DNA of 60,784 nucleotides from Candidatus Micrarchaeota archaeon (GTDB lineage Archaea; Micrarchaeota; Micrarchaeia; Norongarragalinales; SBBD01): assembly GCA_043803465.1 (NCBI GenBank), contig JAZDKC010000074.1, positions 1-60,784 on the forward strand, given 5' to 3'. Made by a program: the position numbers and the translations under genes. Positions within the stretch are counted from its first letter, which is position 1. Each line of letters starts with the position of its first letter. The notes beneath the pieces were generated by a model. It had not been told where the DNA came from and searched no databases. It worked only from the letters and a program-made list of their open reading frames with translations. Below are positions 3,455-56,081 of this stretch, piece after piece.

Positions 3455-3642
3455 AAATGCAAAATCAGGGGGGTAGGCGGCAAAACGAGTGGGGAACCGA
3501 AGGTGCCCCGGAGGTGTCGAGCACATTGATTTCAAGAAGTTTTAATTTACGCAAAACGGGGAGGGGAGAGGCGACACGAGTGGGGAACCGCAGGTGCCCC
3601 GGAGGTGTCGAGCACATTGATTTCAAGGGGGTATAAAAATGC
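3429..3642 (+). repeat. Tandem array with 91-bp period: two hairpin elements (3468-3518, 3558-3609) and three copies of the DP1 3' end
   Basis: AGCACATTGATTTCAAG at 3429, 3520 and 3611; 32-bp identity between 3429-3460 and 3611-3642. Confidence 0.92.
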
Positions 3643-25500: not shown

Positions 25501-28500
25501 TGGTGTTTGCGGAGTTGTTCAAAATGGCGGATTGGTTGAGCTGCGTGTACTCGAACGTTCCGGTGGCGTTGGTCCAAATGCTGCAATTATTGTAACCGCC
25601 GTCATCAACTGGCGCGTATGAGAAGGTAACCGTTTTGCTGCTGCTCGCCTGCAGATCATTGGGCGAGTTAAGGGAAATAGAGGGTAGTGCATTAAGGTAC
25701 AATATTACTGATGAGCTAGTGTTTAGCACGGAACTGTTGCTTGCCCTGTAACTAAGCAAGCCTACTGTTTTGGTTGCACTCACATTGTACGGGATGTAAC
25801 AGTTGATTCCATCATCGCTGCCGGTGCAACCCGGAACGTAGGCAGCCTCGGCAACTTGATCATACTCCTGAAGGACCTGATTCGCAATTCTGCCGTTCGC
25901 ATCTGAAGTGCCGCTTCCCATTGATGCGCCGGTAACATTCGCTATGTTTACGGAAGCTGATTGCACGGGATTATTCGATTGATCCCTCACAATTACACCC
26001 ATGAACCAGAAAACGGTCATGTTGTTTCCGGCCGTGCCATTCTTGGTGGTGGAACGGTTGAATGCGGTGTTGATGAAATGGCTGCCGGTTGCGGAGTTGT
26101 TCATGTAAATGTCGCCGTAGGCAAGCGAGATGTTGCCAAACGAGCTGTTGGTGAAATTCGTGTAGGTGGCGTTGTTGAGGAAGAGGTTGTATTGCGTGCT
26201 GTTTGTCAGATTGACACCGTTGAAAGTCGCATTAACCGTATTATTCAGGAAGATGCCATTGGTGAAATTCAATATTCGGCAATTGTTCGCCCGGAAATCG
26301 CGGAAACCGTTGCTGGCAATTCCGTAGCTATCTGCTGATGCGTTGCCCGAAATTTTGTAGCCGTTGCAATCGAGCTGGATGTTGTCCGCACCGATAGTAT
26401 AGCAGGTGCCTCTCGTTGTGCTCACATCCGCACTGAGGGAAAGATCGGTTGTGATGGTGCCGCAGGGGGATAATGTAAGGGTCAGGAGCCTATAGGAGGA
26501 AATGTCAAAAAGCTGGGAAACGGGCAAATAAGGCGAAAGGGTCGCTGTCAGGTTGTAGGAATTATACGTGGTATTGGCCGTGTCGTTGCCCGTGAATTCC
26601 GTGACTGCCTGGGTCGTATTGTAGCCGGTTGCGCCCGTCAAGCCGGTATACTGGGGGACGCCGGATGTAGAATTCCGGATCGTGATGTTCGCACCGTTAG
26701 CAGGGCTGTTGTCCTCGAAGCCGACGAAAATATCCACATTCCACCTTACGGTAAGATTGTTGTTGCCGCTTCCCCATCCGTATTTCCGGTTAGTAATCGA
26801 TAGGTTCTGAAGGAGGTTGTTCTGCGAGTTGGCTTCGGAATAAACCGAGTAATTGTTGCCGGAAGCCGGCAGGTAATTGAAAACCGAATTGAAAGCGTTG
26901 TTGTTCGAGCTCCCAAGGAAGTGGAGGCCGATTACCAATCCCCCAGTCCCGTTGCTGTTGTTCACAATTCCATCAAAATAAGATGAATTTACCAGGGTAA
27001 AGTTTGTGGACAGAAGCTGCAGGCCGAACGCGGAGCCCCTGCCGCCAAGGGTGCTGCCGTTGCCGCCCACACCTGCAGAGGAATTGCTGAAATTCGAGTC
27101 AAGTATGGTCGTATTGAGTGAGGAGTTGGAAATGAATAATGTCGAATTTCCCGCGTCGCCCCCAATCCCATACAAATTCACTGCGCCGCCTTTTGCACCA
27201 TCCCCGCCTGAACCGGCAATTACCTTCGATATATTGAAGCTGTTGAACCAGATGCTGTCGGAGGAGTTCAGTGCTATGCCTATCGCCGAACCTCCCGCGC
27301 CTCCTGCAGCGCCATTGCCTGCAGGAATATCATTGGCCGCACTCCCCTTGCCGCCGAATATCCCGGTTACTGAGTTATTGCTGAAGGTGTTGTTGCGGGA
27401 TGAATCCAAAATAATTGCGAACGCCTTTCCCCCAGCGCCTCCGGTGTTCGATGCTGCCGTAGTCTGGAAAGGCGCGCCGCCGTTCCCGCCGGAAATATTC
27501 ACGATCCGGTTGCCGGAAAAGGTATTATTGGTACCATTGACCAGGAAAATCCCGATTGCGCCGCCGCCGTTCTTTCCCGGCCTGCTGGAATCCGTACCTA
27601 CGGGACCCCTACCGCCGATCACTGTGGAAATGGCGTTATTGGTTATGCTGGAGTTGGTCAGATTTAAAAAGTAAAATGCGGTCGCATTCAGGCCAAACGA
27701 TGAATAATTGCCTCCAAATTGGCTGCTTACATTGTTGGAGGTAATGTTCGAATTGCCGCTCCAGTCTACGAGGATCGAGTAATTCCCATTTGAAATGAAT
27801 TTGTTGCCCCGGATTAGAAGCGTGTTAGCGGATCCGTTCACGTAAATCCCGGCATTCGAGTTGTTGGTCAAGGTATTGTTTGAAAGGTTGGCGATGTGCG
27901 AACCCGGAAGGAGCTCGATTCCGTTTGAGAAATTGACGAGATGGCAATTGGTGATGTTGACCCCGGTTACGCCGTTCACGACAATTCCGGAGCCGTTCTG
28001 CTGAGTACCGGTAATATTGAAGTTGTTGCAGTTGAAATTGATGTTTGAGGCCGAGATGGTGTAGCACGTGCCATTCGATGCGATGCTTCCGGGCAGGGTT
28101 GTGGAGGCAGCGATCGTGCCGCAGGGGACGACCGGAAGCACCATCAAAATGGTCTTCGAATCGTTGATAGGAAGCAAAGTCGAATTCACGGCGCCGGAAT
28201 AGGCGACGGTGAAATTGTAGATGCCGTAACTCGTATTGGAGCTGCTGTTGCCAATGAATTCGTTGGCTTCCTGCCAGTCCGTGAGGCCGTTGGCATCCGT
28301 TAGCATGTTGGTGAAGTTTGTGGCGCCAAAAGAGGAGTTTGTCATGTTCACATTTGCATTGACTATTGCGGTGCCTGCAGTGCTTCGGACGTAAATTCGG
28401 ACGTAGTCCCGGATCGTGACATTCCCGTTCGAGAAGCCTATCCGGCTGCGGTTGAATGAATTGTTCAGGAGGATGTTCGTGGATTGGTTGATATTGGTGA

Positions 28501-31500
28501 TGTTGATATCGAAGCCCCGCGGGGAGAAGTAAAAGAGGTTGCCGATGAAATTGTTGTATTTGGTCAGGTTCCCATTGGAAACCGAAGTGGTTGTCAGGAA
28601 GAGATTGGAAATTGTGCTATTTCGGAAGGTGTTGTTCTCTATCGTGTTATTGTTGCAGCCGTTCGAACCCGAAAGGCAGGAGATCTGCAGCGCATAATAG
28701 GAATTGTTGTTGAAGGTATTGTTGTATATCCTCGAGAAATTGAGGTAGCCGCCTGAAGTCGAGGAAAGGTTGACACCGACAGTGTTGTTGTAAAAGAAGC
28801 TGGCGGAAATGTTGTGGAACTGGCCGTTGCGGAGCATGATCCCGTTTGTGGAATTTGAGACGTTGGAGCCCAGCATGGTGAAATTATTGGCATCGATTCC
28901 CTGGACGCCGTTCGTGAAGTTCGTTATCCTGCAATTCTTGACGGTCACGTTGGTCCTGGAGCCGACATCCACGCCGATGCCGCTCCCGTTGCCGGTCACG
29001 AAATAATTGTTGCAATCGATGGCGATATTGTCCGCATTCGCGGTGAAACAGGTGCCTTGTGCGTTCAGGCTTACAGTCAATGCCGTCGAAGTGGCAATCG
29101 AACCGCAGGTGATTATTGGGAGTACCACCAATACTTCGGCGGATTGGTTCGTGGGATAGGTGGTCCAGTTGGTAACCCCCGAATAATTTGCGGTGAAATT
29201 GTAATTGGCAAAAGAGGTGTTAATGGAATTATTACCGAAAAACTCCGTAACCGCAACCCAGGCAGTATAGCCGTTTGCGTCCGTAGGGAGATTGCGATGA
29301 TTTGATGCGCCGCTGCTCGTATTGGTTATGTTCGCATTTGCGCTCTCAATGCCGGCCAGATTCGAACCGGTCACATAAACCCTGAAATAATCCTGGATTG
29401 TGAAGTTGTTGATCCCGCTGGCATATAGCATATTGCTGCGGTTGAATGAATTGTTTATGAAGTAATTGTTCCAGGAACTGGCGAAAGTGATATCCGAGCC
29501 GGTTGGGGATGAAATGATTATGTTGTTTGTGAAATTGTTGAACATAGTGTATTCGGGATTGCCGGCAGGCCCGTTCAGATGGAATCCCTTTGAACTGCTA
29601 TTCCTCACCGTATTGTTGGCAATGGTGTTGTTCTGGGCCCTTCCGCCTACGGCGGTGAAAAATTCGATGCCATCGGAATTGTTATCAAAAATATTGTTTG
29701 CAATGGTGTTATTTACATTATTACCAACAAAACTGAACAGGCCCAGGCCATTCGAATTATTGTAAATCGAATTGTTGGTCACATTAGAAAATGCATTGTT
29801 TTGCAATAAGACCCCATAAGTGGAGTTCCAAATCGAATTATTGGCAATAGTAAGGTTATTCCCTTCGCTGTCGATCCCGCGGTCGAAGGAGGATATGTTG
29901 CAATTACGGATGGTTACGTTGGAGTAAGACGTAATATCCACGCCGTTTCCCGTGCCATCGCCCGATATGGCATGGCCGGCACAATCCAAAACAATATTGG
30001 AGGAAGTAACGGTAAAACAGGTGCCATTCGCGAAAAGCGGAACTGCCAAAGTCGCAGAATATCCGAGGTTGCCGCAGACTGTAACCGGGATGATGATCGG
30101 AACGGCCTGGGAATAGTTGATCATGCTTAAGGTCGAATTCGTATAGCCGTTCCAGGTTGCAGTAACATTGTAATATGAATAATTCGTGTTAACCGAGTAA
30201 CTACCGATGAATTCGTTCAGGGGCACATAGGCAGTCAAGCCATTGGCACCCGTTATTTGGTCCGTATAATTGATTGCGCCGAAACTCGAGTTGGTTATAT
30301 TGACAAAGGCAGACCCAAGGCTGACGCCATTAGAACTGGTGACATTCACCCGGACATAATTCTGCAAGGTCATGTTCCCGGAAGTGAAACCGAGCCTTGA
30401 GCGGGTGAATGAATTGTTGAGGAAGATATTGGTAGAGAAGTTTACATCAGAAATGTTGATGTCGCTGCCGATGCTCGCATTGTAAAAAATATTGTTGGTG
30501 AAATTATTATCCGCTATGAGTTCCGGGTAACTGGAATAGCCAAGCAAATACAAGCTGGTTGTGCTGCTGTTGCGGAAGGTATTGTTTATGAATGAATTAT
30601 TCTGTATGTAATAAAGGGACGTTATAAACAGCTTAATGCCGATGCTGTTGTTCTGGAAAGTATTCGAAAATAACTTGTTTGAGCGGGTCAATGTGCCAAC
30701 CAAGCTCCACGACCTGAAGGTAATCGCGTCGTCATTGCCTGAAAAGGAGTTGTTTGAAAAATTGGAATGCCCAAGGCCGTAGAAAAATACCCCGCGGGTG
30801 CTATTTATGAAGGTGGAATTGATTACGCTTAAATAAGTATTATCCGAGTTGCCACCCACAATGCCCGACGAGAGGTTGATGAAGCTCGAATTGATAATAG
30901 TGACATTGTGGGCAGCAAGCATGTTGACCCCCGCGCCTGTGCGCTGATTGTGGTCGAATACGCTCGAATTGATCAATGCGAAATAGGAGGATCCGATATC
31001 CACGCCATCCGAATTATTGTAGAAAGTAGAATATTCCAGCGTGAAATTGTCAGAGCTGCGGCCATAGATGCCGTCGGTGAAATTCGAAATGACGCAGTTC
31101 TTCACGACGACGTTGTCGAAACCGTTGAGGTCTATTGCGGCACCGGAGCCGCTGCCCATAATTTGCTTGCCCTTGCAGTCGATTGTAACGTCGTTCGCCT
31201 GCAATGTAAGGCAGGACCCCCTTGCATCAAGAATTCCGGTGCTCAAATTGAAATTGCTGGAGACGTTGCCGCACCAATCTACGGTCTCGTTGCTGAATTC
31301 CATGTAGGTGTCCGTCCGATTCCAGAAGAGCGCTATGTTCGCGCAATTCTTCTGGATGGTGCAAGTCCGGAAGCCTAGCCTTTCGCCTGGGTAAAGGGTG
31401 GCGTTTTCGCCCGGGCCCATGGTCATAGTTGCAAAGGCGCCTATGAAGGCCTTGTAACAATCAATTGTGGTATTCGTGCGGTTGATTTCATAAACCGAGC

Positions 31501-33223
31501 CGGTGCTATTGTATTTCAAAAGGCTAACGGTGAAATTTGAGGATTGCCCGGTAACACCCTCATTGCCCTTGAAGCCCAGGTAAATGTAAATTGTCCCATT
31601 CACCAGTTCTTTCTCCAAACCGGCACTTTGATTGAATTGGGGGGTAAACCAGGTTTCGTTGAAGCAGGTCAGGGTTGTTGCATTCGATACATGGGTCCAG
31701 GGGTCGTTATTGGGAGTAGTAACTTGCAAGCTCTTGTTCAGAGTGGCGACATCGCTTGTGGAATTAGACAGGAACCATCGGATTTGGGACGCCGTATTGT
31801 TCGCATATGCGACCGCGTCACCAAAGCGGAATTCGAGGCGATGCGGCCCGGATGTGCGGACGGCGCTTTCCTCCGAGCCCTCGAGTTCGCAGGAATAGTC
31901 TGCAATGAATGCGGAGGTGCCATTGAAACTCGCGCCGGCATCCGCTTCGCCGCACTTGATGAATTTGAACTCCAGGTCATGGTCGAAGGTGGTGTTGTCA
32001 ATTGCAGTTACCGTAAGGGGGGCGGAGCCGGTTGTCGTGAACCGCACGGTCCAGTTGCCTCCGACTGCAGGGAAGCTTTGGAGATTCAGGATCGTGATAT
32101 TCACGCCCGCATAGCCGGAGAAGTGGTCCACCTTGAAATTGATACGGCCATCGGTTTCGGCGAATGCCGCGTCGATCATTTCCCATTTTGCGCAGAGGTT
32201 GGATGCGGCGTCGTAATTGGTGCAGGAAACAATCCGTTCGGTCTTGGAATTTGCCGGGAGGGAAATTAAGGCCTCCTCGAATTCCAGCGAGTTCAGTCCG
32301 ATGAAATCGGTTGTAAAGTAGCCTATGATGTTCGCCCTTTCCGATTGGAAGATGTTTGCAAATTTGGAGGGGGGCTCGCCATTGATATGATCGAGGCTTG
32401 TTGGGTCCCTGAGCCCCAGAATTTCAATGGAGGATCCGTCAAATTCCCCGGAATTCGATTTTTTCCGTTTATCCGAGGCAATGGAGAGCCCGAGGTCATA
32501 AACGGTTTCGTTCGTGCCATTTACGTTTTTCACCCGTTTTTTAAGCGAGGTGAATTTCAATTTTTTCAGATGCTTGAATTTTTCCTTCAGGATCCCCAAT
32601 TCCGGAAGCTCGGCGATGCGGCCGGTTTCGTTCAGATCGGTTTCATTTAGGGAAGTCTGATTGAGGCCGGTCTGGTTGAAAAACGATTCATTCAAAAAGG
32701 TGTTGTTGGAAATAGTCCCATTAAGAATGGTTTCATCCATCAAGGTTTGATTCGCGATTGTATCGTTCGCAATGGTTTGATTTGTGATTGATTCGTTCAT
32801 CCCGGTTTGATTGAGGAATGTTGAATTGGAAATCGTTTCGTTTGCGTCGGTCTCGTTCAGGATCGTTTGATTGACAATCGAATCGTTCGCGCCCGTTTGG
32901 TTGGAAATCGTTTCATTCGGGGAAATGGGATCGCCCGGTTGGGTCTGATTTTCCGAGGTCTGATTGGTCGCATTCGCATCGGGGAAATCAGCGTTTAGCT
33001 CAAGCAGGCCGGAATCGGTGAAATTCGAAAGGTTCGAAAGGGTAAAATTGAAGTCGGTAAGGTTGAGGAATTCCGGTGCAATGCTTGCTGTCGGGTATGT
33101 AAGATTCGTGGAGTTGGAGCTCTCGTTTTGGATGGTTTGATTGATGCTGTCAATAGTGGTTAAAGAGAGAAGTGAAAGCAGGGCTAATGCGAACGGGGCG
33201 AATAAGTAGACCTTGCCGCGCAT
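16556..33223 (-). CDS. Giant (~5,555 aa) membrane-anchored surface protein: beta-helix and Ig-like repeats, TM helix, cytoplasmic HerA/FtsK-like (DUF87) ATPase
   Basis: Signal peptide; NxT/S-rich region; C..I....V..DC.G beta-helix repeats; ~97-aa repeats at ~23.7-25.4 kb; P/T linker; TM ~17800-17865; Walker A GATGSGKT (17612-17635); VLVFDPT; Walker B CVYDEVH; RKWGVGMLLISQ. Confidence 0.88.
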   Translation of the reverse strand: MRGKVYLFAPFALALLSLLSLTTIDSINQTIQNESSNSTNLTYPTASIAPEFLNLTDFNFTLSNLSNFTDSGLLELNADFPDANATNQTSENQTQPGDPISPNETISNQTGANDSIVNQTILNETDANETISNSTFLNQTGMNESITNQTIANDTIANQTLMDETILNGTISNNTFLNESFFNQTGLNQTSLNETDLNETGRIAELPELGILKEKFKHLKKLKFTSLKKRVKNVNGTNETVYDLGLSIASDKRKKSNSGEFDGSSIEILGLRDPTSLDHINGEPPSKFANIFQSERANIIGYFTTDFIGLNSLEFEEALISLPANSKTERIVSCTNYDAASNLCAKWEMIDAAFAETDGRINFKVDHFSGYAGVNITILNLQSFPAVGGNWTVRFTTTGSAPLTVTAIDNTTFDHDLEFKFIKCGEADAGASFNGTSAFIADYSCELEGSEESAVRTSGPHRLEFRFGDAVAYANNTASQIRWFLSNSTSDVATLNKSLQVTTPNNDPWTHVSNATTLTCFNETWFTPQFNQSAGLEKELVNGTIYIYLGFKGNEGVTGQSSNFTVSLLKYNSTGSVYEINRTNTTIDCYKAFIGAFATMTMGPGENATLYPGERLGFRTCTIQKNCANIALFWNRTDTYMEFSNETVDWCGNVSSNFNLSTGILDARGSCLTLQANDVTIDCKGKQIMGSGSGAAIDLNGFDNVVVKNCVISNFTDGIYGRSSDNFTLEYSTFYNNSDGVDIGSSYFALINSSVFDHNQRTGAGVNMLAAHNVTIINSSFINLSSGIVGGNSDNTYLSVINSTFINSTRGVFFYGLGHSNFSNNSFSGNDDAITFRSWSLVGTLTRSNKLFSNTFQNNSIGIKLFITSLYYIQNNSFINNTFRNSSTTSLYLLGYSSYPELIADNNFTNNIFYNASIGSDINISDVNFSTNIFLNNSFTRSRLGFTSGNMTLQNYVRVNVTSSNGVSLGSAFVNITNSSFGAINYTDQITGANGLTAYVPLNEFIGSYSVNTNYSYYNVTATWNGYTNSTLSMINYSQAVPIIIPVTVCGNLGYSATLAVPLFANGTCFTVTSSNIVLDCAGHAISGDGTGNGVDITSYSNVTIRNCNISSFDRGIDSEGNNLTIANNSIWNSTYGVLLQNNAFSNVTNNSIYNNSNGLGLFSFVGNNVNNTIANNIFDNNSDGIEFFTAVGGRAQNNTIANNTVRNSSSKGFHLNGPAGNPEYTMFNNFTNNIIISSPTGSDITFASSWNNYFINNSFNRSNMLYASGINNFTIQDYFRVYVTGSNLAGIESANANITNTSSGASNHRNLPTDANGYTAWVAVTEFFGNNSINTSFANYNFTANYSGVTNWTTYPTNQSAEVLVVLPIITCGSIATSTALTVSLNAQGTCFTANADNIAIDCNNYFVTGNGSGIGVDVGSRTNVTVKNCRITNFTNGVQGIDANNFTMLGSNVSNSTNGIMLRNGQFHNISASFFYNNTVGVNLSSTSGGYLNFSRIYNNTFNNNSYYALQISCLSGSNGCNNNTIENNTFRNSTISNLFLTTTSVSNGNLTKYNNFIGNLFYFSPRGFDINITNINQSTNILLNNSFNRSRIGFSNGNVTIRDYVRIYVRSTAGTAIVNANVNMTNSSFGATNFTNMLTDANGLTDWQEANEFIGNSSSNTSYGIYNFTVAYSGAVNSTLLPINDSKTILMVLPVVPCGTIAASTTLPGSIASNGTCYTISASNINFNCNNFNITGTQQNGSGIVVNGVTGVNITNCHLVNFSNGIELLPGSHIANLSNNTLTNNSNAGIYVNGSANTLLIRGNKFISNGNYSILVDWSGNSNITSNNVSSQFGGNYSSFGLNATAFYFLNLTNSSITNNAISTVIGGRGPVGTDSSRPGKNGGGAIGIFLVNGTNNTFSGNRIVNISGGNGGAPFQTTAASNTGGAGGKAFAIILDSSRNNTFSNNSVTGIFGGKGSAANDIPAGNGAAGGAGGSAIGIALNSSDSIWFNSFNISKVIAGSGGDGAKGGAVNLYGIGGDAGNSTLFISNSSLNTTILDSNFSNSSAGVGGNGSTLGGRGSAFGLQLLSTNFTLVNSSYFDGIVNNSNGTGGLVIGLHFLGSSNNNAFNSVFNYLPASGNNYSVYSEANSQNNLLQNLSITNRKYGWGSGNNNLTVRWNVDIFVGFEDNSPANGANITIRNSTSGVPQYTGLTGATGYNTTQAVTEFTGNDTANTTYNSYNLTATLSPYLPVSQLFDISSYRLLTLTLSPCGTITTDLSLSADVSTTRGTCYTIGADNIQLDCNGYKISGNASADSYGIASNGFRDFRANNCRILNFTNGIFLNNTVNATFNGVNLTNSTQYNLFLNNATYTNFTNSSFGNISLAYGDIYMNNSATGSHFINTAFNRSTTKNGTAGNNMTVFWFMGVIVRDQSNNPVQSASVNIANVTGASMGSGTSDANGRIANQVLQEYDQVAEAAYVPGCTGSDDGINCYIPYNVSATKTVGLLSYRASNSSVLNTSSSVILYLNALPSISLNSPNDLQASSSKTVTFSYAPVDDGGYNNCSIWTNATGTFEYTQLNQSAILNNSANTISYTFAADGDYLWNVQCYDNAIPSSSNFSAANRTVRVDSTGPSSIQTIGPTLGNSSNTSRNWVYANYTFTELNAFNCWVQWVNTSTYNLTATLSNSNCFLNITGQTDGNWNYTLFVNDSAGNLGYNGTFTVTVDTLPPSSIKTESPTLSNNSHWGYGWVYVNASFNEPNPGACTLQYYNGSIANYSMARLDGTCNVNLTSQPDGVWNYTIIVNDSAGNIAQNGTFTVTVDTLAPSNIAMVSPTLANLSFTYRNWVYVNATFTELFPNACVLQWNNGSLMNLTMTRSNNNCYLNVTDQPDGYWNYTIIVNDTSANSAQNGTFYISMDGNPPANINTIYPTPANNSFLNYSWVYINYTFTEINPYNCWVQWANTSVYNITAGMTGNNCYLNITGHADGIWNYTVFANDSSGNIGGNGTFNLTIDTTFPMVDYILPTPDDEINLSRNWIYVNTSYTDANLHTALLYWNSIAEPLTCNAHACFLNKTSLAEGAYSYYVFLNDSAGNSNQTSARSAFIDTINPSEITAVFPTPENYSRIHYDWVYVNATFTEMNPNNCILYWLNGSSQNLTMARSGNNCYLNVTGQPLGIHNYTIIVNDTTGNLGENGTLQVQLWENTALNYKPRAQFYNRFGNANITAIFASLDLSNLTIDSAEADFNYGNGTNITINSNNISLNFSDSPADTEFFNSGIFERGFDSGNAQTHWKVGWDSVVVENSTLLIEAAISQDNVTYSTFENLTNSAGSVLNGTPARYMKYRITFGSNGSVTAFLNEINATALYGLNSNITVNLTNLNSAYSLAKSCSTIDGNCTVGFIFASELIGGNYSVNITATNNSAFYEPASVLYETSFEEAITRGSLLASAKTVSPPTWFLINVTLTNRNNATMFEPLISYLSKGQMASIDKLSTTCGASVPTYSHCNATFNVTVPNLPVSSYTVTWNASYRNNNQTNMTISNSSSVIVQSTHTLSASVSLINITGNLSQMNTTLVTITNTGNTNLANITISFVPSTMDGAWITFDPYDFGGLFPNMNFDLDVMIQALAPFTPGVYTGKVNITADDLINGPNTTATSIDIMVISEPQVTATPTVLIADQNLTSNPTLAANISNPGNAPVTNVSVTLENSTIPDGWISFDSIDPAWDSLTNSWTSITEGTEAVLQIIVTILDFIEGVFSAIIKIVSDEGVATYVNVTVNVTPRLDAVSTINLTIQHGFANATEFYINSTGNVKLVNLMISYNETTLPGSWLAFNTTFIENITEFVNYSVQFNVTVPFGTPPGNYSGQINISGYNANRTIGISVEVPENATWYFLPFGDQYKEFGLAESGAIGTITINNTGNANLSFDIGYGDFGGRASCIGGDPYFQDLCTQAVVPSNPTLLNATKNTTTSFTISKVAAGFSNNSDGYALQITMANNSGVPTSNSTVLYFNITNAFPQFRLAATYVNTAQRPYVEYNQTVTLNVTATDDESYGLNPSTAIFNISRPDGTNETYNALNLTLNPFTACGGTCQDAQSYNLAYNATNMSGRFNVTFQVQDALSQQNMTSFYFTVITITNLTLSGNGSNITNAQRNINSTLLLNLSANNTGLVSAYSINLSGMFARQAGAADTLSNWSFNAIPTIPYINGTLQNLTTFNITVGQRSLGIYYFTPNATWAQPNGTIEVIWGPNLTINITSNPDFNVTASNQSLAIPHGFNQTEWFSITPVGNDNITNYTISLSTNYANFSVTFNHTSGNLTLDGLANVSMNISVVYGANSGFRNFTVNVTGGNYSKSFVVNLTVPFNNTWAANTNLFTLDGIAGENSLDNRTLIAHYGTGDAFLNFTFNLTGNMTDFSNLVNTSKYLNTTQSYDIGINYTAPDNNYLYVGCLNITEKNSSSYQLVNITFRSFTVELSVVNITAPLQVIAGDIINESVLLIFGGQNTTSNTTWSMFLNSTQCPLLSNTTFDNESRLACTAPALLDAVYYDLTVRANYSTGSSYLVKNTTNSGYIFYKDITPPQIIAEYSNDTERYENITLSINATDNLALANATVQVTFPNLTAANYTLLYNPGTNLFANQFNLTALGYYSLVYFVNDTTGNMNYSSAGSFEIYETRIFSGTISNLEGNPIVVNFTVRNTSESNYEAFSTNSSGTYNKSLRAKWYELNLKFLFYNVTADRVDFNTINQSLLSLDNFSGSDISSQILGAKAGFAVISNMPTNGTLIIEYADLLATITDETLLRIYNCHNYTYASRSCVESWSQMQNTSLNTIGNTINGTISAFANTTVAYALVQYTVPTPTPTTLPPYNPPSGGSVGSTGGYTPPQPPAASPTPIPAPTDNVSKQIEELKKLLQENKTKDMGLEPGVQSIVFELYPGESSQTSVHIKNTLNATSKINVTLVGVIRDFITASSKQISLNRMHETDLMIFATIPDKAKTGNYYGELQLQNEVGKISIPVTVRVLDRKEERSLDLRLQPLVDTIDPGETLRVEVNIYNLAEASEIKGIFHLEAVDPVTDSVLEQTQEEEITLQNTYNSIKPIKIPSDAHTGRLVIRGVFDYSVGETLKKRDVTAIAYVRVQTSFWSNKLFGMISIWQFIPLLLILLATIFTYYRQYSVTKSKRRYVAKVDFTKLPEPGLRAGFLGLIAETKVRSFAAIDKLQMHTLIAGATGSGKTVAAQVIVEEALQKNTAVLVFDPTAQWTGFLRAQKNRDMLLNYRRFGMNTDEAKAFKGNIYVVRDPNMAIDIKKLMKPGEITVFVMNKLSFADHETFISNTVKQVFAAGLPESPQLKLLCVYDEVHRLLPKFGGRGEGFIQIERGAREYRKWGVGMLLISQVLSDFVGEIKANIGTEIQMRTKYEGDLERLKLKYGEDSARSIVKESIGSGMVQNSEYNNGQPYFVSFRPLLHNVVRLSDTELSQYETYNDKVEKLEADMEQLRQEGHDVLDLELEINLARDKVKKGAFNIVEIYLDSLSQKIESMRKKSGQKPSPRIDMLDFGIGDILGEKKADEAAGKDAKTDAEKKDIA

Positions 33224-33360
33224 AAACACCAAAACTGCAAAATTACCTCTAATAGAGGCATTTGGGTTACTCTTCCCGCCTTTAAAACCCCTCTGCCTAA
33301 AACCACTAGTTTATAATAAGAATAGTTATTAATAGTTAATAGCTTTATTGAGGTGAAAAG

Positions 33361-38834: not shown

Positions 38835-38906
38835 AGCCCCCGGCGAGGATTGCACTCGCGACCTTTCGCTTACAAGGCGAACGCTCTACTACTGAGCTAC
38901 GGAGGC
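38835..38906 (-). tRNA. tRNA-Thr(UGU), intronless, CCA not encoded
   Basis: GCCTCCGTAGCTCAGTAGTAGAGCG-TTCGC-CTTGTAA-GCGAA-AGGTC-GCGAG-TGCAATC-CTCGC-CGGGGGCT cloverleaf. Confidence 0.93.
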
Positions 38907-38953: not shown

Positions 38954-39799
38954 ATGGATTCCAATTATTACATAATTTATGCAAAAGAGCTGATTATTCT
39001 GAAAAAGCCAATAATTGTCATTATTCTGCTAATTGCCTGCGTTTTTGCCTTAGGCTGCCTCGAGTCAAGAACCGAAATGTCACCACCGTCGCCCTCGCCA
39101 ACAGGGGGGCTCTCGAAATGCGAGAGGATGCAGGATTTGAACGAGCGTTCCGCATGCCTGCTTGAGATGGCAAGCTTCAACGATGATCCGGGATTGTGCG
39201 CAAAAATGCCAATAATTTATACGGCAGATGACTGCTACGCGTATTTTGCAAACAAGAGGGGGGATGAGAATTTCTGCTACAATATCCAGGGCGATCTGAA
39301 AGCAGATTGCATATCGAAAATCGCGTTGGGAAAGCAGGATTTTGGCCTTTGCAGCGAAATTGAAGACGAGGGGAAAAATAAGGAATGCATGGAAGAAATC
39401 GGGAAATCGCAGCCGGATTTATGCGGCAAAATGCCTACAGCTGCGGAAAAGGATGATTGCATGTTCAAGGCGGCGACGCAAAACAACAGCACGGTGCTGT
39501 GCAACAGGATCCAGAACCCCGATGCAATATTTCGATGCCTGCTTTTCGTATCCCCCGGCGAAATCACAATGGATCTGTGCAACAAGACAACTAGCCCGGA
39601 TCCGAGAGTGGATTGCTACAAAAATAGGGGCATTTACGCGGGCGATTTCAGTGCGTGCATGATAATAAATGACTGGCTGGTGAAGGGCGAATGCCTCAAC
39701 CAGCTCGCAATCATGACGAAGAACGCGACCGTGTGCAAATCGCTTGATTCGGAAAAGAAAACGAATGCGTGCATTGAGGCAGTGAACAAGGCAGGATGA
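38954..39799 (+). CDS. Secreted/lipoprotein with ~25-aa Cys-pair repeats
   Basis: FALGC lipobox-like signal; repeated C..I......C....A....D...C; exact start uncertain. Confidence 0.75.
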   Translation: MDSNYYIIYAKELIILKKPIIVIILLIACVFALGCLESRTEMSPPSPSPTGGLSKCERMQDLNERSACLLEMASFNDDPGLCAKMPIIYTADDCYAYFANKRGDENFCYNIQGDLKADCISKIALGKQDFGLCSEIEDEGKNKECMEEIGKSQPDLCGKMPTAAEKDDCMFKAATQNNSTVLCNRIQNPDAIFRCLLFVSPGEITMDLCNKTTSPDPRVDCYKNRGIYAGDFSACMIINDWLVKGECLNQLAIMTKNATVCKSLDSEKKTNACIEAVNKAG

Positions 39800-39842
39800 T
39801 TGATTTCGGATTTATTAGAGATATTTAATTTTAGGAACCCTT

Positions 39843-39886
39843 GACACCTAGGGAATACGAATCCCCCATCGTGTCGCCTTGCCCCC
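39843..39886 (-). repeat. Hairpin element after the phosphoesterase stop
   Basis: GGGGGCAAGGCGACACGATGGGGGATTCGTATTCCCTAGGTGTC, followed by a copy of the gene 3' end (39815-39842). Confidence 0.9.
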
Positions 39887-39888
39887 TC

Positions 39889-40677
39889 TTAGAGATATTT
39901 TATCTTTGGAAACTCCTTGACGCCGCCTTCCTCATCGATCACTGTTGGAACGAATTCATCGATGTTGCAATCCTTTAGGATCGGCGACACCAGATCGTTG
40001 TCATAATGGCCGGAAACAAGGTCCGTGCCAGATGCAAGCGGGGATAAGGAGGGGAGTACCAGCAGCTCCTTCCGGTTGAATTCGCCCCTAAGCGCGCAAT
40101 TGTATTTATGGGGCACATTTATCTCATCGCGCAGCGAAACAGCGGGGTGCACATGCCCGATCACAAGGGTTTTGTATTCCTTGAATTCCGGAATATCGCC
40201 GTATTCCTCCAATTTCTTGTGCCCGTGGACGAATAACACGCCCTTTTCGAAAAAATAGTCGTGCATTTTCAGGTTCTGGTTGCGCAATATCTTTTGCACG
40301 TAATTGTCATGGTTTCCGCGCACCAAAATCAGCTCGATTTCCCGCTTCTTGAAAAAATTAAGCAATTGCAGCACTTCATCCCATTCCTGCTGCAGCGGCT
40401 TTGAGAATTCGTGCTTGAGATCGCCGTTGATCAGGACGCGTTTTGCCTTGGTTCCCTTGAGCATCGCCTCAAGCCGTTCAATAATTATCGGGAATTGGGG
40501 GGCAGGCACCTCGATGCCGATATTATGAAGCACCGCCTCATGCCCCATCTGAATGTCGGAAACCGCAAGCAGCCCAAGCTCTTCGAAATAAACCCCGCTT
40601 TCCTTGAGGACCTTGATTTTTGCACCTTCCCTTTTTTTGAAGAAATTATCGATTCGAGAGCGCATATCCATTTTCAA
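39889..40677 (-). CDS. Lhr-associated metallophosphoesterase
   Basis: SDIQMG, NGDLKH, RGNHD, VHGH, GHVHP; downstream of lhr. Confidence 0.88.
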   Translation of the reverse strand: MKMDMRSRIDNFFKKREGAKIKVLKESGVYFEELGLLAVSDIQMGHEAVLHNIGIEVPAPQFPIIIERLEAMLKGTKAKRVLINGDLKHEFSKPLQQEWDEVLQLLNFFKKREIELILVRGNHDNYVQKILRNQNLKMHDYFFEKGVLFVHGHKKLEEYGDIPEFKEYKTLVIGHVHPAVSLRDEINVPHKYNCALRGEFNRKELLVLPSLSPLASGTDLVSGHYDNDLVSPILKDCNIDEFVPTVIDEEGGVKEFPKIKYL

Positions 40678-40689
40678 CCCGAATTGCCA

Positions 40690-43317
40690 TTATTCATCCC
40701 TTATTTTGCCAATCCTTTTTAGCACCAATGTGTGCAGCTGCTCTAAAATTGCCTTCCTATCCGTAAGAAGGACCACATCCGAAATTCCCTGGGTGATCAG
40801 GAGCTGCGCGAATGGCGAGGGAAGGTCATATGAAGGAAGGACGGTCACTTGAAGCTCTCCATCCTTGAGCCATTTTTGCACGACCTGCGCGTTTTTCAGG
40901 TCCATGTGGTCCTCGAGGATTTCTCGGAAGGTTTCCGTTATAACAGGAAAATCGGGAAGCCGGCTAGAAATGCCAAGCATTATGTGCGCGCTCATCTGCT
41001 GCTTCCCAACAGAGCGCTTCCGCCCCAAATAGTTGCGCAAAATCATCAAAGACCTCACGGCAACATCGCGGAATTTGCGCTTAAGGGTTTCGGTTTGCTT
41101 GATTGCCTCTTTGGCCTCCTCTTCTAAATTGAGATTGGCAACCAGGAAGAGCTCCTTTTTGATCTCGACGTTGATCGCACGGCTCATTGTAAGCACGAAA
41201 CCGTTGTCATTTAAGGAGATGACTACATTGCGGTTGATGCGATGCGAAATCCTTGCGGCAAGCACTTTCGCAAGCACCTCGTTCACGCGCCTGCCGAACA
41301 ATGAATGGAAAATGAAATGCCTTTTCCCCTCGGAAAGGAACTCCTCGATAATGAGCTGCTTTTCAGAGTGGAAGGTATGGCTGCGCAAAAGGTTCAGGAA
41401 TGCCATCTGCTCGGCAAAATAATCGTAAATTACAATTGCCGCATCCTCATTGCAATGGCAGCTCTTTTGTATGAATGCGAGCGCTTCCACCCTGCTCTTG
41501 TTGCGCAGCATCTCGCCAAGTGTGCCACGGAACCTGCTGATTGCGGATGCAAGATCGAAGCTTAAGGGAAGCATCTCGGAAAACCATTGGGGTATCGTGG
41601 GCTTTTGGCCCTCGGCAAGCGAAACATACGCATTCATGCCTTTCGCATATTCATAGCCATAGGTTTTCCCTCCAAGGACGAATCGGTCGCCCTTGCGCAA
41701 TCGCTCAAGGAAATCCTCCTCAATGTTGCCTATGTGCCGTCCAAGCGGAAGAAGGAGGACGGAAATGGAAACCGAATCGGGGATGGTGCCGATATTGGTC
41801 GCATATAGCACGCGCAGCAATTTGCCGCGCCTTCCGAACTCCTGCGCAGTTTCATCATACCATATTTTGCCGTAAACGCGGTATTTTTCCAGGGAGGCGT
41901 AGCTGCCCGAAAGGAATAGGAGCACGCTCCTGAAATCCTTTTCAGCCAAATTGCGGTAACAATAGCTCTGCCTCACGAGCTTGAGTGCCTCTTCGAATTT
42001 CCATTGCCTCTCAACGGCCATGCCGATCACGTGCTGCGCAAGCACATCAAGGCAGTTCTGCGGTATCTGCACACGGTCGATGTGGCCCTTGTAGGCCTCC
42101 TGGAGCATCACACCCACCTCAACCAGGTCATCCCGGTCCAGCGCGATCATTTTGCTTTCGGAAATTTTGTAGATGTCATGCCCGCTCCTTCCAGTTCGCT
42201 GCAATGCGCGCGAAACGCTCTTGGGCGAGCCCATTTGGATCACGAGGTCTATGTAGCCGATATCGATTCCAAGTTCTAGGCTGGTGGAACTCACGACCAC
42301 TTTCAGCTCGCCGTTTTTGAGCTTTGTTTCCACACCCTTGCGCTCTTCCCTCGAGAGGGAAGAGTGATGCGCTTCAATGCGGTCGAGGTAATTTTTCGGG
42401 AAATATTCCTTCAGATGATGCACCAAGCGCTCGGTTCCGCTGCGGGTGTTGGTAAAAATGAGCGTGGTGCGGTGAAGCTGTATCAATGCATCGAGAATTT
42501 TGTAAGTGCGCCTTAGCATCTCATCCTGGGCGGTATGGATCAGGTCGGAAGATGGGGAGAGCAGCTCCAGTTTCATTTCCTTCGCATACTGCGCATTCAC
42601 AATTATGCAATCCTTTGGCTTGCCATCGCAATAGCCCGTGAGGAATTCCGAAATTTGATCAAGCGGCGCAATTGTCGCGGAGAGGCCGATGCGCGCGATT
42701 GGCAGCTCATTGAGGTTTTGCAGCCGTTCCAATGAGAGCGAAAGGTGCACGCCGCGCTTTCCGCTTGCGAGTTCGTGTATTTCATCCACAATCACCCATT
42801 TGACCCATTTGAAATTCTCTATGAATTTCGGGGCGGAGAGGATTATCGCAAGGGATTCCGGCGTTGTGATCAGGATGTGGGGGGGGTTGCGGGCCATTCT
42901 TGCCCTTTCCGAGGGGGTGGTGTCGCCGGAGCGCATTGCAACCCGGATGTGGTGCTCCTTTCCGCTTTTTTTCCTGCGGATCCCCTCAATTTCGGAAAGC
43001 GGGCCATTGAGGTTCTTTTCAATATCAGCTGCGAGGGCGCGCAGGGGGGACACATAGATGCAATAAATCCGGTCCTCGAGGTTCCCCTTTTCCGCGAGCC
43101 CGACCAGCTCGTTGATGATGCTCAGGAATGCCGTTAGCGTCTTTCCCGAACCGGTTGGGGCGGAGATCAAGACATTCCTGCCCTCGTGGATCAATTTGAT
43201 TCCGTATTTTTGGGGCATCGTAAGTTCTTTGAAATTCGAGAACCACTCCCGCACATTGGGGTTCAGGATGGAGAGCACTTCTTCTTTGGTATTTTCCTTT
43301 GACGCATACTCGGCCAT
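40690..43317 (-). CDS. lhr: Lhr-like SF2 helicase
   Basis: APTGSGKT, DEIH, GLSAT, AHHSSL, SLELGID, QRTGRSGH, IGTIPD. Confidence 0.93.
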   Translation of the reverse strand: MAEYASKENTKEEVLSILNPNVREWFSNFKELTMPQKYGIKLIHEGRNVLISAPTGSGKTLTAFLSIINELVGLAEKGNLEDRIYCIYVSPLRALAADIEKNLNGPLSEIEGIRRKKSGKEHHIRVAMRSGDTTPSERARMARNPPHILITTPESLAIILSAPKFIENFKWVKWVIVDEIHELASGKRGVHLSLSLERLQNLNELPIARIGLSATIAPLDQISEFLTGYCDGKPKDCIIVNAQYAKEMKLELLSPSSDLIHTAQDEMLRRTYKILDALIQLHRTTLIFTNTRSGTERLVHHLKEYFPKNYLDRIEAHHSSLSREERKGVETKLKNGELKVVVSSTSLELGIDIGYIDLVIQMGSPKSVSRALQRTGRSGHDIYKISESKMIALDRDDLVEVGVMLQEAYKGHIDRVQIPQNCLDVLAQHVIGMAVERQWKFEEALKLVRQSYCYRNLAEKDFRSVLLFLSGSYASLEKYRVYGKIWYDETAQEFGRRGKLLRVLYATNIGTIPDSVSISVLLLPLGRHIGNIEEDFLERLRKGDRFVLGGKTYGYEYAKGMNAYVSLAEGQKPTIPQWFSEMLPLSFDLASAISRFRGTLGEMLRNKSRVEALAFIQKSCHCNEDAAIVIYDYFAEQMAFLNLLRSHTFHSEKQLIIEEFLSEGKRHFIFHSLFGRRVNEVLAKVLAARISHRINRNVVISLNDNGFVLTMSRAINVEIKKELFLVANLNLEEEAKEAIKQTETLKRKFRDVAVRSLMILRNYLGRKRSVGKQQMSAHIMLGISSRLPDFPVITETFREILEDHMDLKNAQVVQKWLKDGELQVTVLPSYDLPSPFAQLLITQGISDVVLLTDRKAILEQLHTLVLKRIGKIRDE

Positions 43318-43408: not shown

Positions 43409-44878
43409 CTAATGCTGCTTCCGCGCTTTTTCATCATCGTCCTTCTCAAGGATCATTTCAGCGTAGTATTTGCGCATGAACAGGTTCACATCCTCAATTT
43501 TCGTGACCTTGTTCTCGACCAGGTAGGAAAGCATTTTCCGTCTTTGCGCAATCTCGGCGGTCACCTCACTTGGCGACCTGGCGGTCACGCGCGCGAGCTT
43601 TTCAAGTGATTGCGAGGGCAGGTTGGTTTTTTCCGGTGCGAGATGCTCGTAGTTGAACCTGTAAAGCTCATTTTGCGTGACCACATTGTCGAGCCAGTCA
43701 AGCTCTGCAATCTGGGTCACCCGCCTCACAAGGCCGTCCTTCTTTGTGTAAATCCTATGCTGCACCAAAACTATATCAACAAGCGGGATCAGGTTTGGCG
43801 GCACATTCATCGGGAAGTTCTCAAGCCGCTGGATCGTATCCTTCGCATCCTGGGCATGCAATGTGGCAAGCATGCCGCGGGAGCCGATATTCATGGCGGT
43901 AAATAATGGATGCGCTTCACTGCCCCGAACCTCCCCGATGATCAGGCGGTCGGGCCGCATACGAAGCGAATTCTTCACAAGCCCTTCCAGATCCACATGC
44001 TCCGTGGTTTTTGTGGCAACCCAGTTTTCCATCCCATACAGGCTGATTTCCCTAGTATCCTCCATGCTCACGATCCTTTCGGAGGGGGGGATGAAGCTGC
44101 TTAGGGCATTGATCGTGGTGGTTTTGCCGCTTGCGGTTTCACCCACAATCAACAGGTTCATGGGATGGAGCCGGAAGCCTTCGATCATGACCCAAAGGAA
44201 TGCGGCGATGTCCAGGTTCATGGTGCCGTTTATTATCAAATCGATCACGGTCATGGGCTGCTGCTTGAATTTACGGATTGTCAATGTGACCTGATCAACT
44301 GCCGGCGGGAAGAGCACATTCGCACGGCTGCCATCCGGCATCCGGATGTCTTCGGTTGTCCTGCGCTCATCCGGGAGGATTTGCTGGAGCAATTCGAGCA
44401 TGTGCTTCTCATCCCGAAATTTCAGGTTGGTTTTGCACATCCCCACTTTCCTGTGGAAAACGTAAATATCGTACGGGCCGTTGACCATTATTTCCTCGAG
44501 CTCATCATCCTCGAATAAAGGCTCAAGCAGGGCAATCCCAAACATCCGGGAAATCAGCTGCTGCACCATCAGCTTCTGCGAGACCGGATCCGGGAGCACC
44601 TGCGAAAAAAGCACAATCAGCTGCTCGCGCATCTTCCTGCGTTCCTCCGTCGGCAACGGCTTGCCGATTATGCCTTGATCAAAGCCGGATAGGAATTCCT
44701 TGAAGAAGCGCTCCTTTTCCTCGAGCTTGTAGGTGCGGCTGAAATCCTTCAATTGGGTTTTTTGCGAGATCAGCTTGATGAAGTCATTCATGATGTATTC
44801 GAGATCCGCCGAGAGCGGCTTCTCCTCGATGACGTAATTGGAAAAAGGGTAGTCAATTTCAACGCGCGCTTCGTACAT
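43409..44878 (-). CDS. TadA/CpaF/VirB11-family secretion ATPase
   Basis: EEIMVNG, GETASGKTT, EDTRE, LRMRPDRLIIGEVRG; true start likely ATG 44878. Confidence 0.9.
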   Translation of the reverse strand: MYEARVEIDYPFSNYVIEEKPLSADLEYIMNDFIKLISQKTQLKDFSRTYKLEEKERFFKEFLSGFDQGIIGKPLPTEERRKMREQLIVLFSQVLPDPVSQKLMVQQLISRMFGIALLEPLFEDDELEEIMVNGPYDIYVFHRKVGMCKTNLKFRDEKHMLELLQQILPDERRTTEDIRMPDGSRANVLFPPAVDQVTLTIRKFKQQPMTVIDLIINGTMNLDIAAFLWVMIEGFRLHPMNLLIVGETASGKTTTINALSSFIPPSERIVSMEDTREISLYGMENWVATKTTEHVDLEGLVKNSLRMRPDRLIIGEVRGSEAHPLFTAMNIGSRGMLATLHAQDAKDTIQRLENFPMNVPPNLIPLVDIVLVQHRIYTKKDGLVRRVTQIAELDWLDNVVTQNELYRFNYEHLAPEKTNLPSQSLEKLARVTARSPSEVTAEIAQRRKMLSYLVENKVTKIEDVNLFMRKYYAEMILEKDDDEKARKQH

Positions 44879-44912
44879 GAATTGAATAAGCAGAAGTGGT
44901 TTAAAAAAGTGA

Positions 44913-45168
44913 GCAACGCCTCCGGGGGACCGGTTGCCCCTACTCGTGTTGCCCCTACCCCTTCTGATTTTGAATACCTTTATAACCGGCAACTCCCAAA
45001 ACAATAACGCAGTCTTCCAGATAGCCGGGGAGCTAAGGGATTCGACACCCACAGGGGAATGGCTTCCCCTCCACGTGTCGCCGCCACCCCTTCCGATTTT
45101 GAATACATTTATAACCGGCAACTCCCAAAACAATAACGCAGTCTTCCAGATAGCCGGGGAGCTAAGGG
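44913..45168 (-). repeat. 129-bp period duplication: two hairpin elements (44913-44961, 45044-45090) plus a duplicated SRP promoter/5' end
   Basis: 83-bp repeats at 44957-45039 and 45086-45168, 2 mismatches. Confidence 0.92.
45108..45114 (+). promoter_or_regulatory. TATA box of the SRP RNA gene (duplicated at 44979)
   Basis: TTTATAA ~24 nt upstream of the predicted RNA 5' end. Confidence 0.7.
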
Positions 45169-55459: not shown

Positions 55460-55488
55460 CCCTTACGCCTTTTTTTGCGGTGGTTAGA

Positions 55489-55959
55489 ATGCGATGCCCG
55501 TACTGCACACATATGGAAACGAAGGTTCTCGATTCAAGGGATGCGGAGGACCTGGCGGTTACAAGGCGCAGAAGGGAGTGCGAAAAGTGTGAGAAGCGTT
55601 TCACAACATATGAGCGGGTGGAATTCCTGGACTTGGTTGTCAGGAAGAAGGATGGCAAGACCGAGCCCTTTGACCGAAAGAAGATTGAAACGGGAATGCT
55701 CAAGGCGTGCGAGAAGCGGCCAATAAGCCGGGAGAAGATCGAGGAGCTCGTGGATGAGATGGAGCGCGACATCCGCAAGAAGGAGGGCACAGAGATCCCA
55801 ACACAGGAGATTGGGGAGCTTGTTATAGAGAAGCTCAAGAAGCTCGACAAGGTCGCATACATCAGGTTCGCAAGCGTGTACCGTGAATTCACGGACCTGA
55901 ATGAGTTTGAATCGGAAATGAAGAAATTGCTCAAGAAGAGCGAAAGAGTGGAGAAATGA
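55489..55959 (+). CDS. nrdR: Transcriptional repressor NrdR
   Basis: MRCPYC..TKVLDSR..RRRECEKCEKRFTTYE, ATP cone, VAYIRFASVYREF. Confidence 0.95.
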   Translation: MRCPYCTHMETKVLDSRDAEDLAVTRRRRECEKCEKRFTTYERVEFLDLVVRKKDGKTEPFDRKKIETGMLKACEKRPISREKIEELVDEMERDIRKKEGTEIPTQEIGELVIEKLKKLDKVAYIRFASVYREFTDLNEFESEMKKLLKKSERVEK

Positions 55960-56081
55960 AATGGCAAATATGAAGGGGTAAGGCGACACGATAGGGGAAA
56001 CGTAGTTGCCCCTCAGGTGTCATGAAGAAATTGCTCAAGAAGAGCGAAAGAGTGGAGAAATGAAATGGCAAATATGAAGGG
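55918..56081 (+). repeat. Perfect 60-bp duplication of the nrdR 3' end around a hairpin element (55975-56021)
   Basis: 55918-55977 = 56022-56081; element GGGGTAAGGCGACACGATAGGGGAAACGTAGTTGCCCCTCAGGTGTC. Confidence 0.93.

Follow-up and report, generated by a model that had tools for sequence, protein, structure and literature searches.

The phosphoesterase gene end and its duplicate

The stretch of DNA analyzed here (the window, 60,784 nt) is contig JAZDKC010000074.1 of a Candidatus Micrarchaeota archaeon (GCA_043803465.1; hereafter G000), whose genome of 1.4 Mb is represented by a metagenome assembly of 91 contigs with a completeness of 90.7%. Its minus strand carries a gene for a calcineurin-like metallophosphoesterase, with the gene of an Lhr-type helicase (40690-43317) directly upstream. 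Each of the 10 other genomes from the taxonomic family of G000 has an orthologue of the phosphoesterase, and the C-terminus of the protein (...GGVKEFPKIKYL) is conserved. This ORF represents the functional gene, of which the end was duplicated. The features of the locus, and of related loci in the window, are collected in Table 1.

Table 1. Positions in the window of the duplicated gene ends and of members of the hairpin element family.
Feature	Position	Strand	Evidence
Two tandem family members (3457-3518, 3548-3609)	3457..3609	+	R1 50.5 and 64 bits
Displaced downstream copy of the phosphoesterase gene end, 28 nt, starting immediately 3′ of the hairpin base	39815..39842	-	Sequence and alignment
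Two-stem hairpin core: 5-bp outer stem, internal loop, inner stem	39843..39878	-	Covariance model, fold, family covariation
Short G-rich left arm, from stop codon to hairpin	39879..39888	-	Aligns to conserved left-arm columns of family alignment A2
Upstream (in-gene) copy: last 10 codons and stop (GTC...TAA)	39889..39921	-	Contiguous with gene body; alignment to the displaced copy
Metallophosphoesterase gene, 262 codons (first listed start)	39889..40677	-	ORF list; Pfam Metallophos E 1.2e-9
Two tandem family members (44915-44975, 45044-45104)	44915..45104	-	Covariance model; flank comparison
Upstream copy of exact 60-nt repeat at NrdR-like gene end	55918..55977	+	60/60 identical
Second family member in window, 80% identical to the phosphoesterase-site element	55960..56021	+	BLAST E 1.3e-5; R1 57.3 bits
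Downstream copy of exact 60-nt repeat	56022..56081	+	60/60 identical

On the minus strand the gene ends with GTC AAG GAG TTT CCA AAG ATA AAA TAT CTC TAA, and a second version of this stretch, AAGGGTTCCTAAAATTAAATATCTCTAA, follows after a spacer of 46 nt (39888-39843). Alternatively, the repeat may be taken to begin with the final GTC of the spacer, and the displaced copy then spans 39815-39845. The two copies differ by three substitutions (CCA/CCT, AAG/AAA, ATA/ATT), all at third codon positions and all synonymous, so that P, K and I are kept and the last six codons and stop of the displaced copy read PKIKYL*, as the initial annotation had noted. They differ further by two single-base gaps (GAG/G-G and TTT/TT-) that leave the displaced copy out of frame at its start. 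The 2-nt deletion near the junction reported earlier is thus correct as to the number of missing nucleotides and is better described as two separate 1-nt gaps. The ungapped core of the repeat (39815-39837 versus 39889-39911) shows 87% identity at a spacing of 74 nt.

When the final 36 nt of the gene were aligned locally with the 128 nt that follow, the score was 38, a value that none of 5000 shuffled controls attained (mean 12.4, sd 2.1, maximum 27). Across the whole genome, only 11 of 1829 long open-frame ends scored at least 38 against their own downstream 128 nt. At the level of DNA sequence, the duplication of the phosphoesterase 3′ end around a small inserted element, as first proposed in the initial annotation, is confirmed as real.

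A family of hairpin elements at gene ends

The spacer between the two copies consists of a left arm and a hairpin that, together with the adjoining gene end, are recognized by the covariance model R1 (39843-39900; 41.8 bits, E 3.3e-13). The predicted RNA fold of this hairpin has an energy of -16.2 kcal/mol with the expected stems formed. A BLAST search with this region revealed a second copy in the window, just after an NrdR-like gene, and the genome as a whole contains 50, 59 or 76 copies according to pattern, nhmmer and covariance-model searches, respectively, scattered over 38 contigs. The family consensus (alignment A2, 46 copies) is tripartite: it comprises an A-rich stretch containing stop codons, the G-rich left arm, and the hairpin, whose outer and inner stems measure 5 and 7 bp and whose internal loop is 4x4. 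The stems are paired in 94% of 549 pair cells, and 93 cells are changed on both sides, compared with 32±5 in shuffled alignments (0/500 as high) and far lower values in slid controls. Elements are 46-70 nt long and contain no ORF.

The copies are found preferentially at gene ends: 34 of 54 lie directly after the end of a same-strand ORF, a situation found for 28% of random positions, and 31 of 54 then meet the end of a convergent ORF. At two sites of the genome (C56, about 12521-12559, and C48, about 6560-6597) the right end of the element abuts a sequence that by eye resembles a tRNA; targets may perhaps not be gene ends alone.

Matches to the covariance model were obtained in every one of the 10 other genomes of this taxonomic family, with 5-74 per genome, and in the other families of the order the model gave just one or two weak matches in 7 of 50 genomes. 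An exact 22-letter pattern was found in 36 stretches from 8 assemblies among 185,579 species genomes; six of these assemblies carry Micrarchaeota or Norongarragalinales in their titles and two only 'archaeon', and viral contigs gave no match to the pattern. By these searches the element family is confined to one taxonomic family of Micrarchaeota. In Rfam 15, no family matches the element at its gathering threshold in the window, and nothing better than E 5 was obtained for 39700-40000; the sole match in the window is a tRNA-Thr. The family is undescribed, and a literature search that left most subscription journals outside its scope found no description of such a hairpin family in Micrarchaeota.

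Duplications flanking the elements

Flanking duplication is a trait of the family. In G000, a repeat of the left flank begins within 8 nt of the last base of the hairpin at 23 of 50 copies, and 29 of 37 elements in other assemblies are flanked in the same way. The repeats measure 18-83 nt in G000 and 14-108 nt in the other assemblies. Their right junction is always at the hairpin base; their left junction is variable, with the upstream copy ending 0-68 nt before the hairpin. The initial annotation had pointed to a resemblance between GGTGTC at the element end and GGCGTC in the gene as junction microhomology. This is no rule of the family, because no excess of microhomology was found over 24 duplications: the 6 nt preceding the upstream copy and the element end agree on average at 1.54 of 6 positions, versus 1.55 of 6 at control positions (P 0.54, n=24). 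The first base of the repeat at the hairpin base is a purine in all 12 clean junctions (9 G, 3 A), which may reflect a weak target or joining preference.

Nine of the 23 duplications in G000 show no codon difference in the assigned frame; eight of these are fully identical and one has two non-coding differences in 83. The remaining 14 differ, with 35 synonymous and 12 non-synonymous codon differences, and an independent set from other Micrarchaeota assemblies gave 41 and 17, for reading frames that were assigned automatically and are in some cases plainly wrong. Frames set by hand gave 12:2 at a small zinc-ribbon gene (C60) and 5:1 at C42. The 35:12 ratio exceeds both the synonymous fraction of 0.21 expected from random changes (P 4e-15) and that of 0.40 expected if one copy is constrained and the other decays freely (P 2e-6). 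Both copies therefore appear to carry changes that arose under coding constraint. The synonymous recoding reported at the phosphoesterase gene (3/3) is hence real and general to the family. Of the model proposed earlier, in which the element itself carries a recoded gene end, the duplicated end and the synonymous excess stand; the carriage of a recoded end by the element is at most a possibility, as nine duplications lack any codon difference, and passage of an occupied allele between diverged lineages by recombination would produce the recoded pattern equally well. By quarter of the repeat, counted from its start, the differences number 12, 18, 24 and 18, with a lower density in the first quarter.

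Divergence of the repeats is unrelated to that of the elements they flank. The age of an element, taken as its distance to the nearest other copy, does not correlate with the divergence of its repeat (rho -0.01, n=23); the repeats around two mutually identical elements have diverged, and the element at the NrdR-like gene, with its exact 60-nt repeat, differs by 20% from every other copy in the genome.

Occupied and empty phosphoesterase sites

The initial annotation suggested a comparison with orthologous empty alleles, and this comparison established KEFPK[IL][KR]YL* as the conserved functional end in relatives. The phosphoesterase site is empty in the congeners G002, G003, G004 and G006 and in the metagenome contig L017. 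In these alleles the gene ends with ...GGVKEFPK[IL][KR]YL and a stop, followed by unrelated DNA, and the end sequence is held once. The same site is occupied in the congeners G001 and G005, and the G005 version is also present in an independent metagenome contig (L016). Metagenomes scanned with alignment A1 yielded only three close loci (L015-L017) and a more distant one (L018), and a scan with the phosphoesterase protein alone found no relative.

The three occupied sites have both junctions in common. In G001 and G005, the downstream copy starts at the K codon after GGV, as in G000, and the left arm starts at or directly after the last sense codon. The in-gene copy of G001 lacks the native TGA, and the stop is supplied by the left arm (...YLQ stop). 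The two copies differ by one codon in G001 and by seven codons in G005, six of them synonymous. The displaced copy of G005 reads AAG GAG TTC CCG, which is the form of the empty allele of G004 and is one codon away from those of G003 and G006, and its in-gene copy differs from this form at all four codons. G000 and G005 have TTT CCA of their in-gene copies in common, along with a rare element subtype. In G000 and G001, each genome's own two copies are more alike than either is to any copy of another genome. Within the genus, the phosphoesterase protein tree has the form of a star, and in such a tree one old insertion with losses looks the same as repeated entry.

The element of G005 also holds a nested insert of ~57 nt, located between the outer and inner stems (L008). 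This insert is a second structured repeat, with three copies in G000 (C28, about 3595-3700; C42, about 32716; C60, about 7725).

Other gene ends

The NrdR-like gene (ORF 55480-55956) is predicted from Pfam to encode a zinc ribbon and an ATP-cone, and its end lies within the exact 60-nt repeat. Neither the repeat nor a family element is present at this gene end in five of six congeners; in the remaining one, G003, there is a different composite element whose copies show six synonymous differences and one non-synonymous difference. The insertion in G000 is, by this comparison, a young event. An exact repeat at a gene end that is without the repeat in five of six congeners implies that the event can copy resident sequence.

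At the gene of an RNA polymerase subunit, the end is occupied in three of the seven genomes of the genus (G000, G003 and G006), with three different junctions, and is empty in the other four. All eight codon differences at this gene end are synonymous. This gene end was evidently struck recurrently and independently in three species. A thiolase-like gene is occupied in both G000 and G002, with the same left junction, right junctions that are 9 nt apart, and different element subtypes. The protein identity of 96% between these two genomes was considered as a sign of recent exchange of the thiolase gene; the DNA is uniformly ~82% identical across the region, which indicates simply a conserved protein. 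A 391-codon gene (C33 in G000) has a family element in G000, and in G002 a different hairpin element with a duplication of its own. In the latter (L102), a hairpin outside the family lies between a copy ending in GDMDYVFKL and a stop and a copy ending in GDMEHVFKL and a stop, which suggests that the habit of duplicating gene ends extends beyond one sequence family.

Two tandem arrays are present in the window. The array at 3457-3609 is located between the genes of the small (1940-3451) and large (3639-7067) subunits of PolD, as assigned by Pfam, and the same 32-nt segment follows each of its members (32/32). In the array at 44915-45104, the same 83-nt segment precedes each member (81/83 identical). 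The latter array follows a 78-codon ORF and lies upstream of a gene for a type II/IV secretion ATPase; the true start of the long predicted ORF at 43409-45133 is probably downstream of the tandem elements.

Search for a mobility enzyme

Profile searches of the G000 genome gave no match to PF01797 (Y1_Tnp), PF07282 (TnpB zinc ribbon), RVT_1, PF00589 (Phage_integrase, tyrosine recombinase), Cas1, rve or IS110, each of which matched in the control genomes. No enzyme able to make staggered breaks 14-108 nt apart was found among the mobility families searched. The only DDE_Tnp_1 gene of the genome (C17, 8790-10000; L168 1790-3001, minus strand) encodes 403 codons and is IS5-like, with NCBIfam scores of 111 bits for IS5 and 27 bits for IS1634 that are both below the cut-off. 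It is not flanked by element ends and has no matching termini. Its 3′ end carries a hairpin element with a diverged repeat, and the gene was rejected as the mover of the element, being without matching termini and itself one more target. Stand-alone DUF559 nuclease genes were likewise rejected as partners, as those in relatives do not adjoin elements.

Comparison with known systems

REP and REPIN sequences, associated with RAYT (Y1) proteins, and other palindromes derived from IS200/IS605 are small GC-rich extragenic hairpins that occur in many copies after gene ends. Their stems show compensatory changes, they require a Y1 transposase, and their insertion leaves the target without a long duplication. 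The present family resembles them in size, structure and position; an origin of this kind was rejected, given the lack of Y1_Tnp and TnpB matches in its own genome and the presence of long duplications. Integrative elements that enter gene 3′ ends, such as prophage e14 in icd of E. coli, also leave a duplicated end with synonymous differences, and are of kilobase size, encode an integrase and use one fixed attachment site. An integrase-type element was dismissed on the basis of the zero matches to PF00589, a search that covers tyrosine recombinases, and of repeats that are gene-specific at every locus. As insertion sequences, IS1634 and IS1549 are autonomous: they encode a DDE transposase, have inverted ends and generate variable target duplications of tens to hundreds of bp. 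The long and variable duplications are a likeness, whereas the only DDE_Tnp_1 gene here is IS5-like. A MITE would have terminal inverted repeats like those of an autonomous insertion sequence and a target duplication of fixed length, 2-10 bp. It does not agree with a single hairpin with an asymmetric left arm or with variable repeats of 14-108 nt, and no insertion sequence whose ends match the element was found.

A long target duplication upon insertion has been described for restriction-modification gene units (Furuta et al. 2010, PMC2853133, where Nobusato et al. 2000 is cited). The direct target repeats exceed 30 bp, vary in length, arise without a transposase and in some cases overlap a gene 3′ end, all of which recalls the present family. 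The insert there is a several-kb gene set that is sporadic and has no defined terminal structure, whereas here it is a tiny, structured hairpin of a family with a precise right end and repeats that are often synonymously diverged. As with those units, the repeat at the phosphoesterase gene (28-33 nt) is single in the five empty sites and no mobility gene was found, and at the NrdR-like gene an exact 60-nt repeat is accompanied by a single gene end in five of six congeners.

The architecture also resembles that of the mORFs, mobile endonuclease ORFs that create gene hybrids in fungal mitochondria (atp6 of Allomyces; atp6, atp9, cox2 and nad3 of Glomus; PMC3630166). In these hybrids a foreign C-terminus enters together with an endonuclease ORF and displaces the native C-terminus, giving the order of gene body, in-frame C-terminal copy, element and displaced second copy that is found here. 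There, too, the two copies differ far more in DNA than in protein, and interlineage transfer is invoked. The mORFs are ~1 kb long and encode their own endonuclease, whereas the hairpin element measures 46-70 nt, lacks an ORF or an identified nuclease, is present in ~60-76 copies per genome at many gene ends, and is often flanked by exact duplications. An endonuclease encoded by or linked to the element, as in an mORF, was not found: the element has no ORF, and the stand-alone DUF559 genes of relatives, the nuclease family searched, do not adjoin elements.

Four further candidates were set aside. The copies are too dispersed for a CRISPR array (38 contigs), and neither an Rfam CRISPR match above threshold in the window nor a Cas1 match was found. 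A diversity-generating retroelement, which would bring a reverse transcriptase and restrict the differences to template adenines, is inconsistent with the zero RVT_1 matches and with differences of A/T, G/A and A/T at third codon positions. The internal loop of the hairpin is 4x4 by inspection and does not form the two bulges 4 bp apart of a bulge-helix-bulge intron, and no known RNA family of Rfam 15 other than tRNA-Thr reaches its gathering threshold in the window.

Origin of the duplicated gene ends

The best explanation for these data, and in our judgment a probable one, is insertion with long variable target duplication combined with the exchange of occupied alleles by recombination. A small non-coding element would have inserted at the very end of the phosphoesterase gene and duplicated ~30 nt of its target. 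The primary event would be of the kind proposed for the whole family, with breaks on either side of a stretch of 14-108 nt that are subsequently filled in by machinery not encoded by the element; a DNA-processing activity of this kind is suggested by the precision with which the right end coincides with the hairpin base, and by duplications that are long and variable. The copy joined to the gene would serve as its working C-terminus and stop, so that the gene stays whole, and the displaced copy would be a relic whose decay has begun with the two 1-nt deletions. The synonymous-only differences would have been imported from alleles that evolved as coding sequence, and would not stem from mutation of a dead copy. 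With two repeats in place, the element is bordered on either side by sequence homologous to one gene end. Ordinary homologous recombination could then carry an occupied allele into a diverged lineage whose allele is empty, one crossover lying in the gene and a second in the displaced copy or past it. The outcome would be an in-gene copy from one lineage and a displaced copy that is in part from the other.

An alternative that we consider unlikely is the entry of the element together with a replacement gene end from another lineage, in frame, with the native end pushed downstream as in a homing cassette. The synonymous-only differences at many loci agree with such a transfer, for which fungal mitochondria offer a precedent (Beaudet 2013, PMC3630166). 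At the phosphoesterase gene it would account for the displaced copy of G005, whose form is common to three of the five empty alleles and departs from the in-gene copy at four third positions, as well as for the TTT CCA and rare element subtype that link the in-gene copies of G000 and G005 and for the stop codon that the left arm provides to the in-gene copy of G001. The pattern of a foreign in-gene and a native displaced copy fits G005 at this gene and is mixed at the C57, C33 and RNA polymerase gene ends, with synonymous sites near saturation between the species compared. Against this route, the copies in G000 and G001 resemble their own partners more than the copy of any other genome, nine of 23 duplications have no codon difference, and the repeat is identical over 60/60 positions where five of six congeners lack it. 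A separate cassette would, moreover, be needed for each gene end, for an element that has no ORF and for which no nuclease partner was found. Recombination of occupied alleles is favored over this route because it needs no nuclease, allows for exact repeats within a population, and fits the lower number of differences in the first quarter of the repeat.

The favored scheme has difficulties of its own. No enzyme for the staggered breaks was found among the families searched, and at the other gene ends compared neither copy is consistently nearer to relatives, a pattern that favors no direction of exchange. The uniqueness of an element also does not track the divergence of its repeat, a mismatch that would call for gene conversion between elements or for sources that were not sampled. 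The three occupied phosphoesterase sites could represent one old insertion, in which case the good preservation of the displaced copy would need explaining.

Very unlikely, in our view, is a local origin without mobility at the phosphoesterase locus, in which a resident hairpin provokes a tandem duplication by polymerase stalling, by slippage or by ligation of an unprocessed hairpin flap during replication or repair, and the second hairpin is then lost. Arrays of flank and element do exist (3457-3609, 44915-45104 and C30), as do second units broken inside the 5′ stem (C21 and C33), and a constant right junction at the hairpin base would be in keeping with this route. It leaves unexplained, however, the identical or near-identical elements at unrelated gene ends, the empty orthologous sites beside occupied ones with different junctions, and the synonymous excess; slippage also predicts junction microhomology, and none was found. 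Plain target duplication followed by ordinary mutation, with purifying selection on the in-gene copy and neutral decay of the displaced copy, agrees with the two frame-breaking deletions at the phosphoesterase gene and is highly improbable, as ~40% synonymous differences would be expected and 35/47 and 41/58 were observed in the frames as assigned, along with 8/8 at the RNA polymerase gene. The stitching of two strain variants of the gene end via the repeated element is conceivable for a metagenome assembly of 91 contigs and is nevertheless barely credible, given that a single short read is longer than the entire 107-nt structure, that the same architecture occurs at the same gene in two other species and an independent metagenome contig and in 29 of 37 elements of other assemblies, and that exact 60-nt repeats are not derivable from strain variation.

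It is possible, if rather doubtful, that the hairpin family represents a new kind of enzyme-less, homing-like mobile element. If so, the element would, through the duplication of the end that it enters, equip itself with homology to this end on either side. Any DNA piece with gene end, hairpin and gene end could then take the place of an empty allele in a diverged lineage by ordinary recombination, despite different downstream neighbors, and the recoded duplicates would be scars of transfer that directly record interspecies gene flow in uncultured ultra-small archaea. If the proposed reading holds, DPANN archaea with small genomes carry an abundant mobile element (~1 per 20 kb) without a recognizable transposase. 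Its targets are gene ends, the genes themselves stay unbroken, and recombination between lineages is recorded in dated scars that can be read from the sequence. Few ways are known by which tiny non-coding elements spread, and this would be a further one. It would also account for a class of puzzling orphan gene tails, by which gene callers and phylogenies can be misled, and would make gene flow accessible in organisms that resist cultivation. New here are the allele series of the phosphoesterase gene, the hits at the RNA polymerase gene in three species, the replicated synonymous excess, the lack of junction microhomology, the absence of seven mobility-enzyme families, and the restriction of the element to one taxonomic family.

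Other features of the window

The region between the phosphoesterase gene end and the tRNA-Thr gene (38835-38906) contains a cysteine-rich ORF of 281 codons on the plus strand (38954-39799) with no Pfam match. In G003, G004 and G005, a sequence resembling a tRNA by eye follows the phosphoesterase gene after ~110-200 nt, a distance that leaves no room for this ORF. The minus strand further holds a single open frame of ~5558 codons (16559-33232), which includes NosD/beta-helix and Ig-like domains and, near the C-terminus, a P-loop ATPase region similar to HerA/FtsK. Its predicted product resembles a surface protein of giant size that has an unusual ATPase tail.
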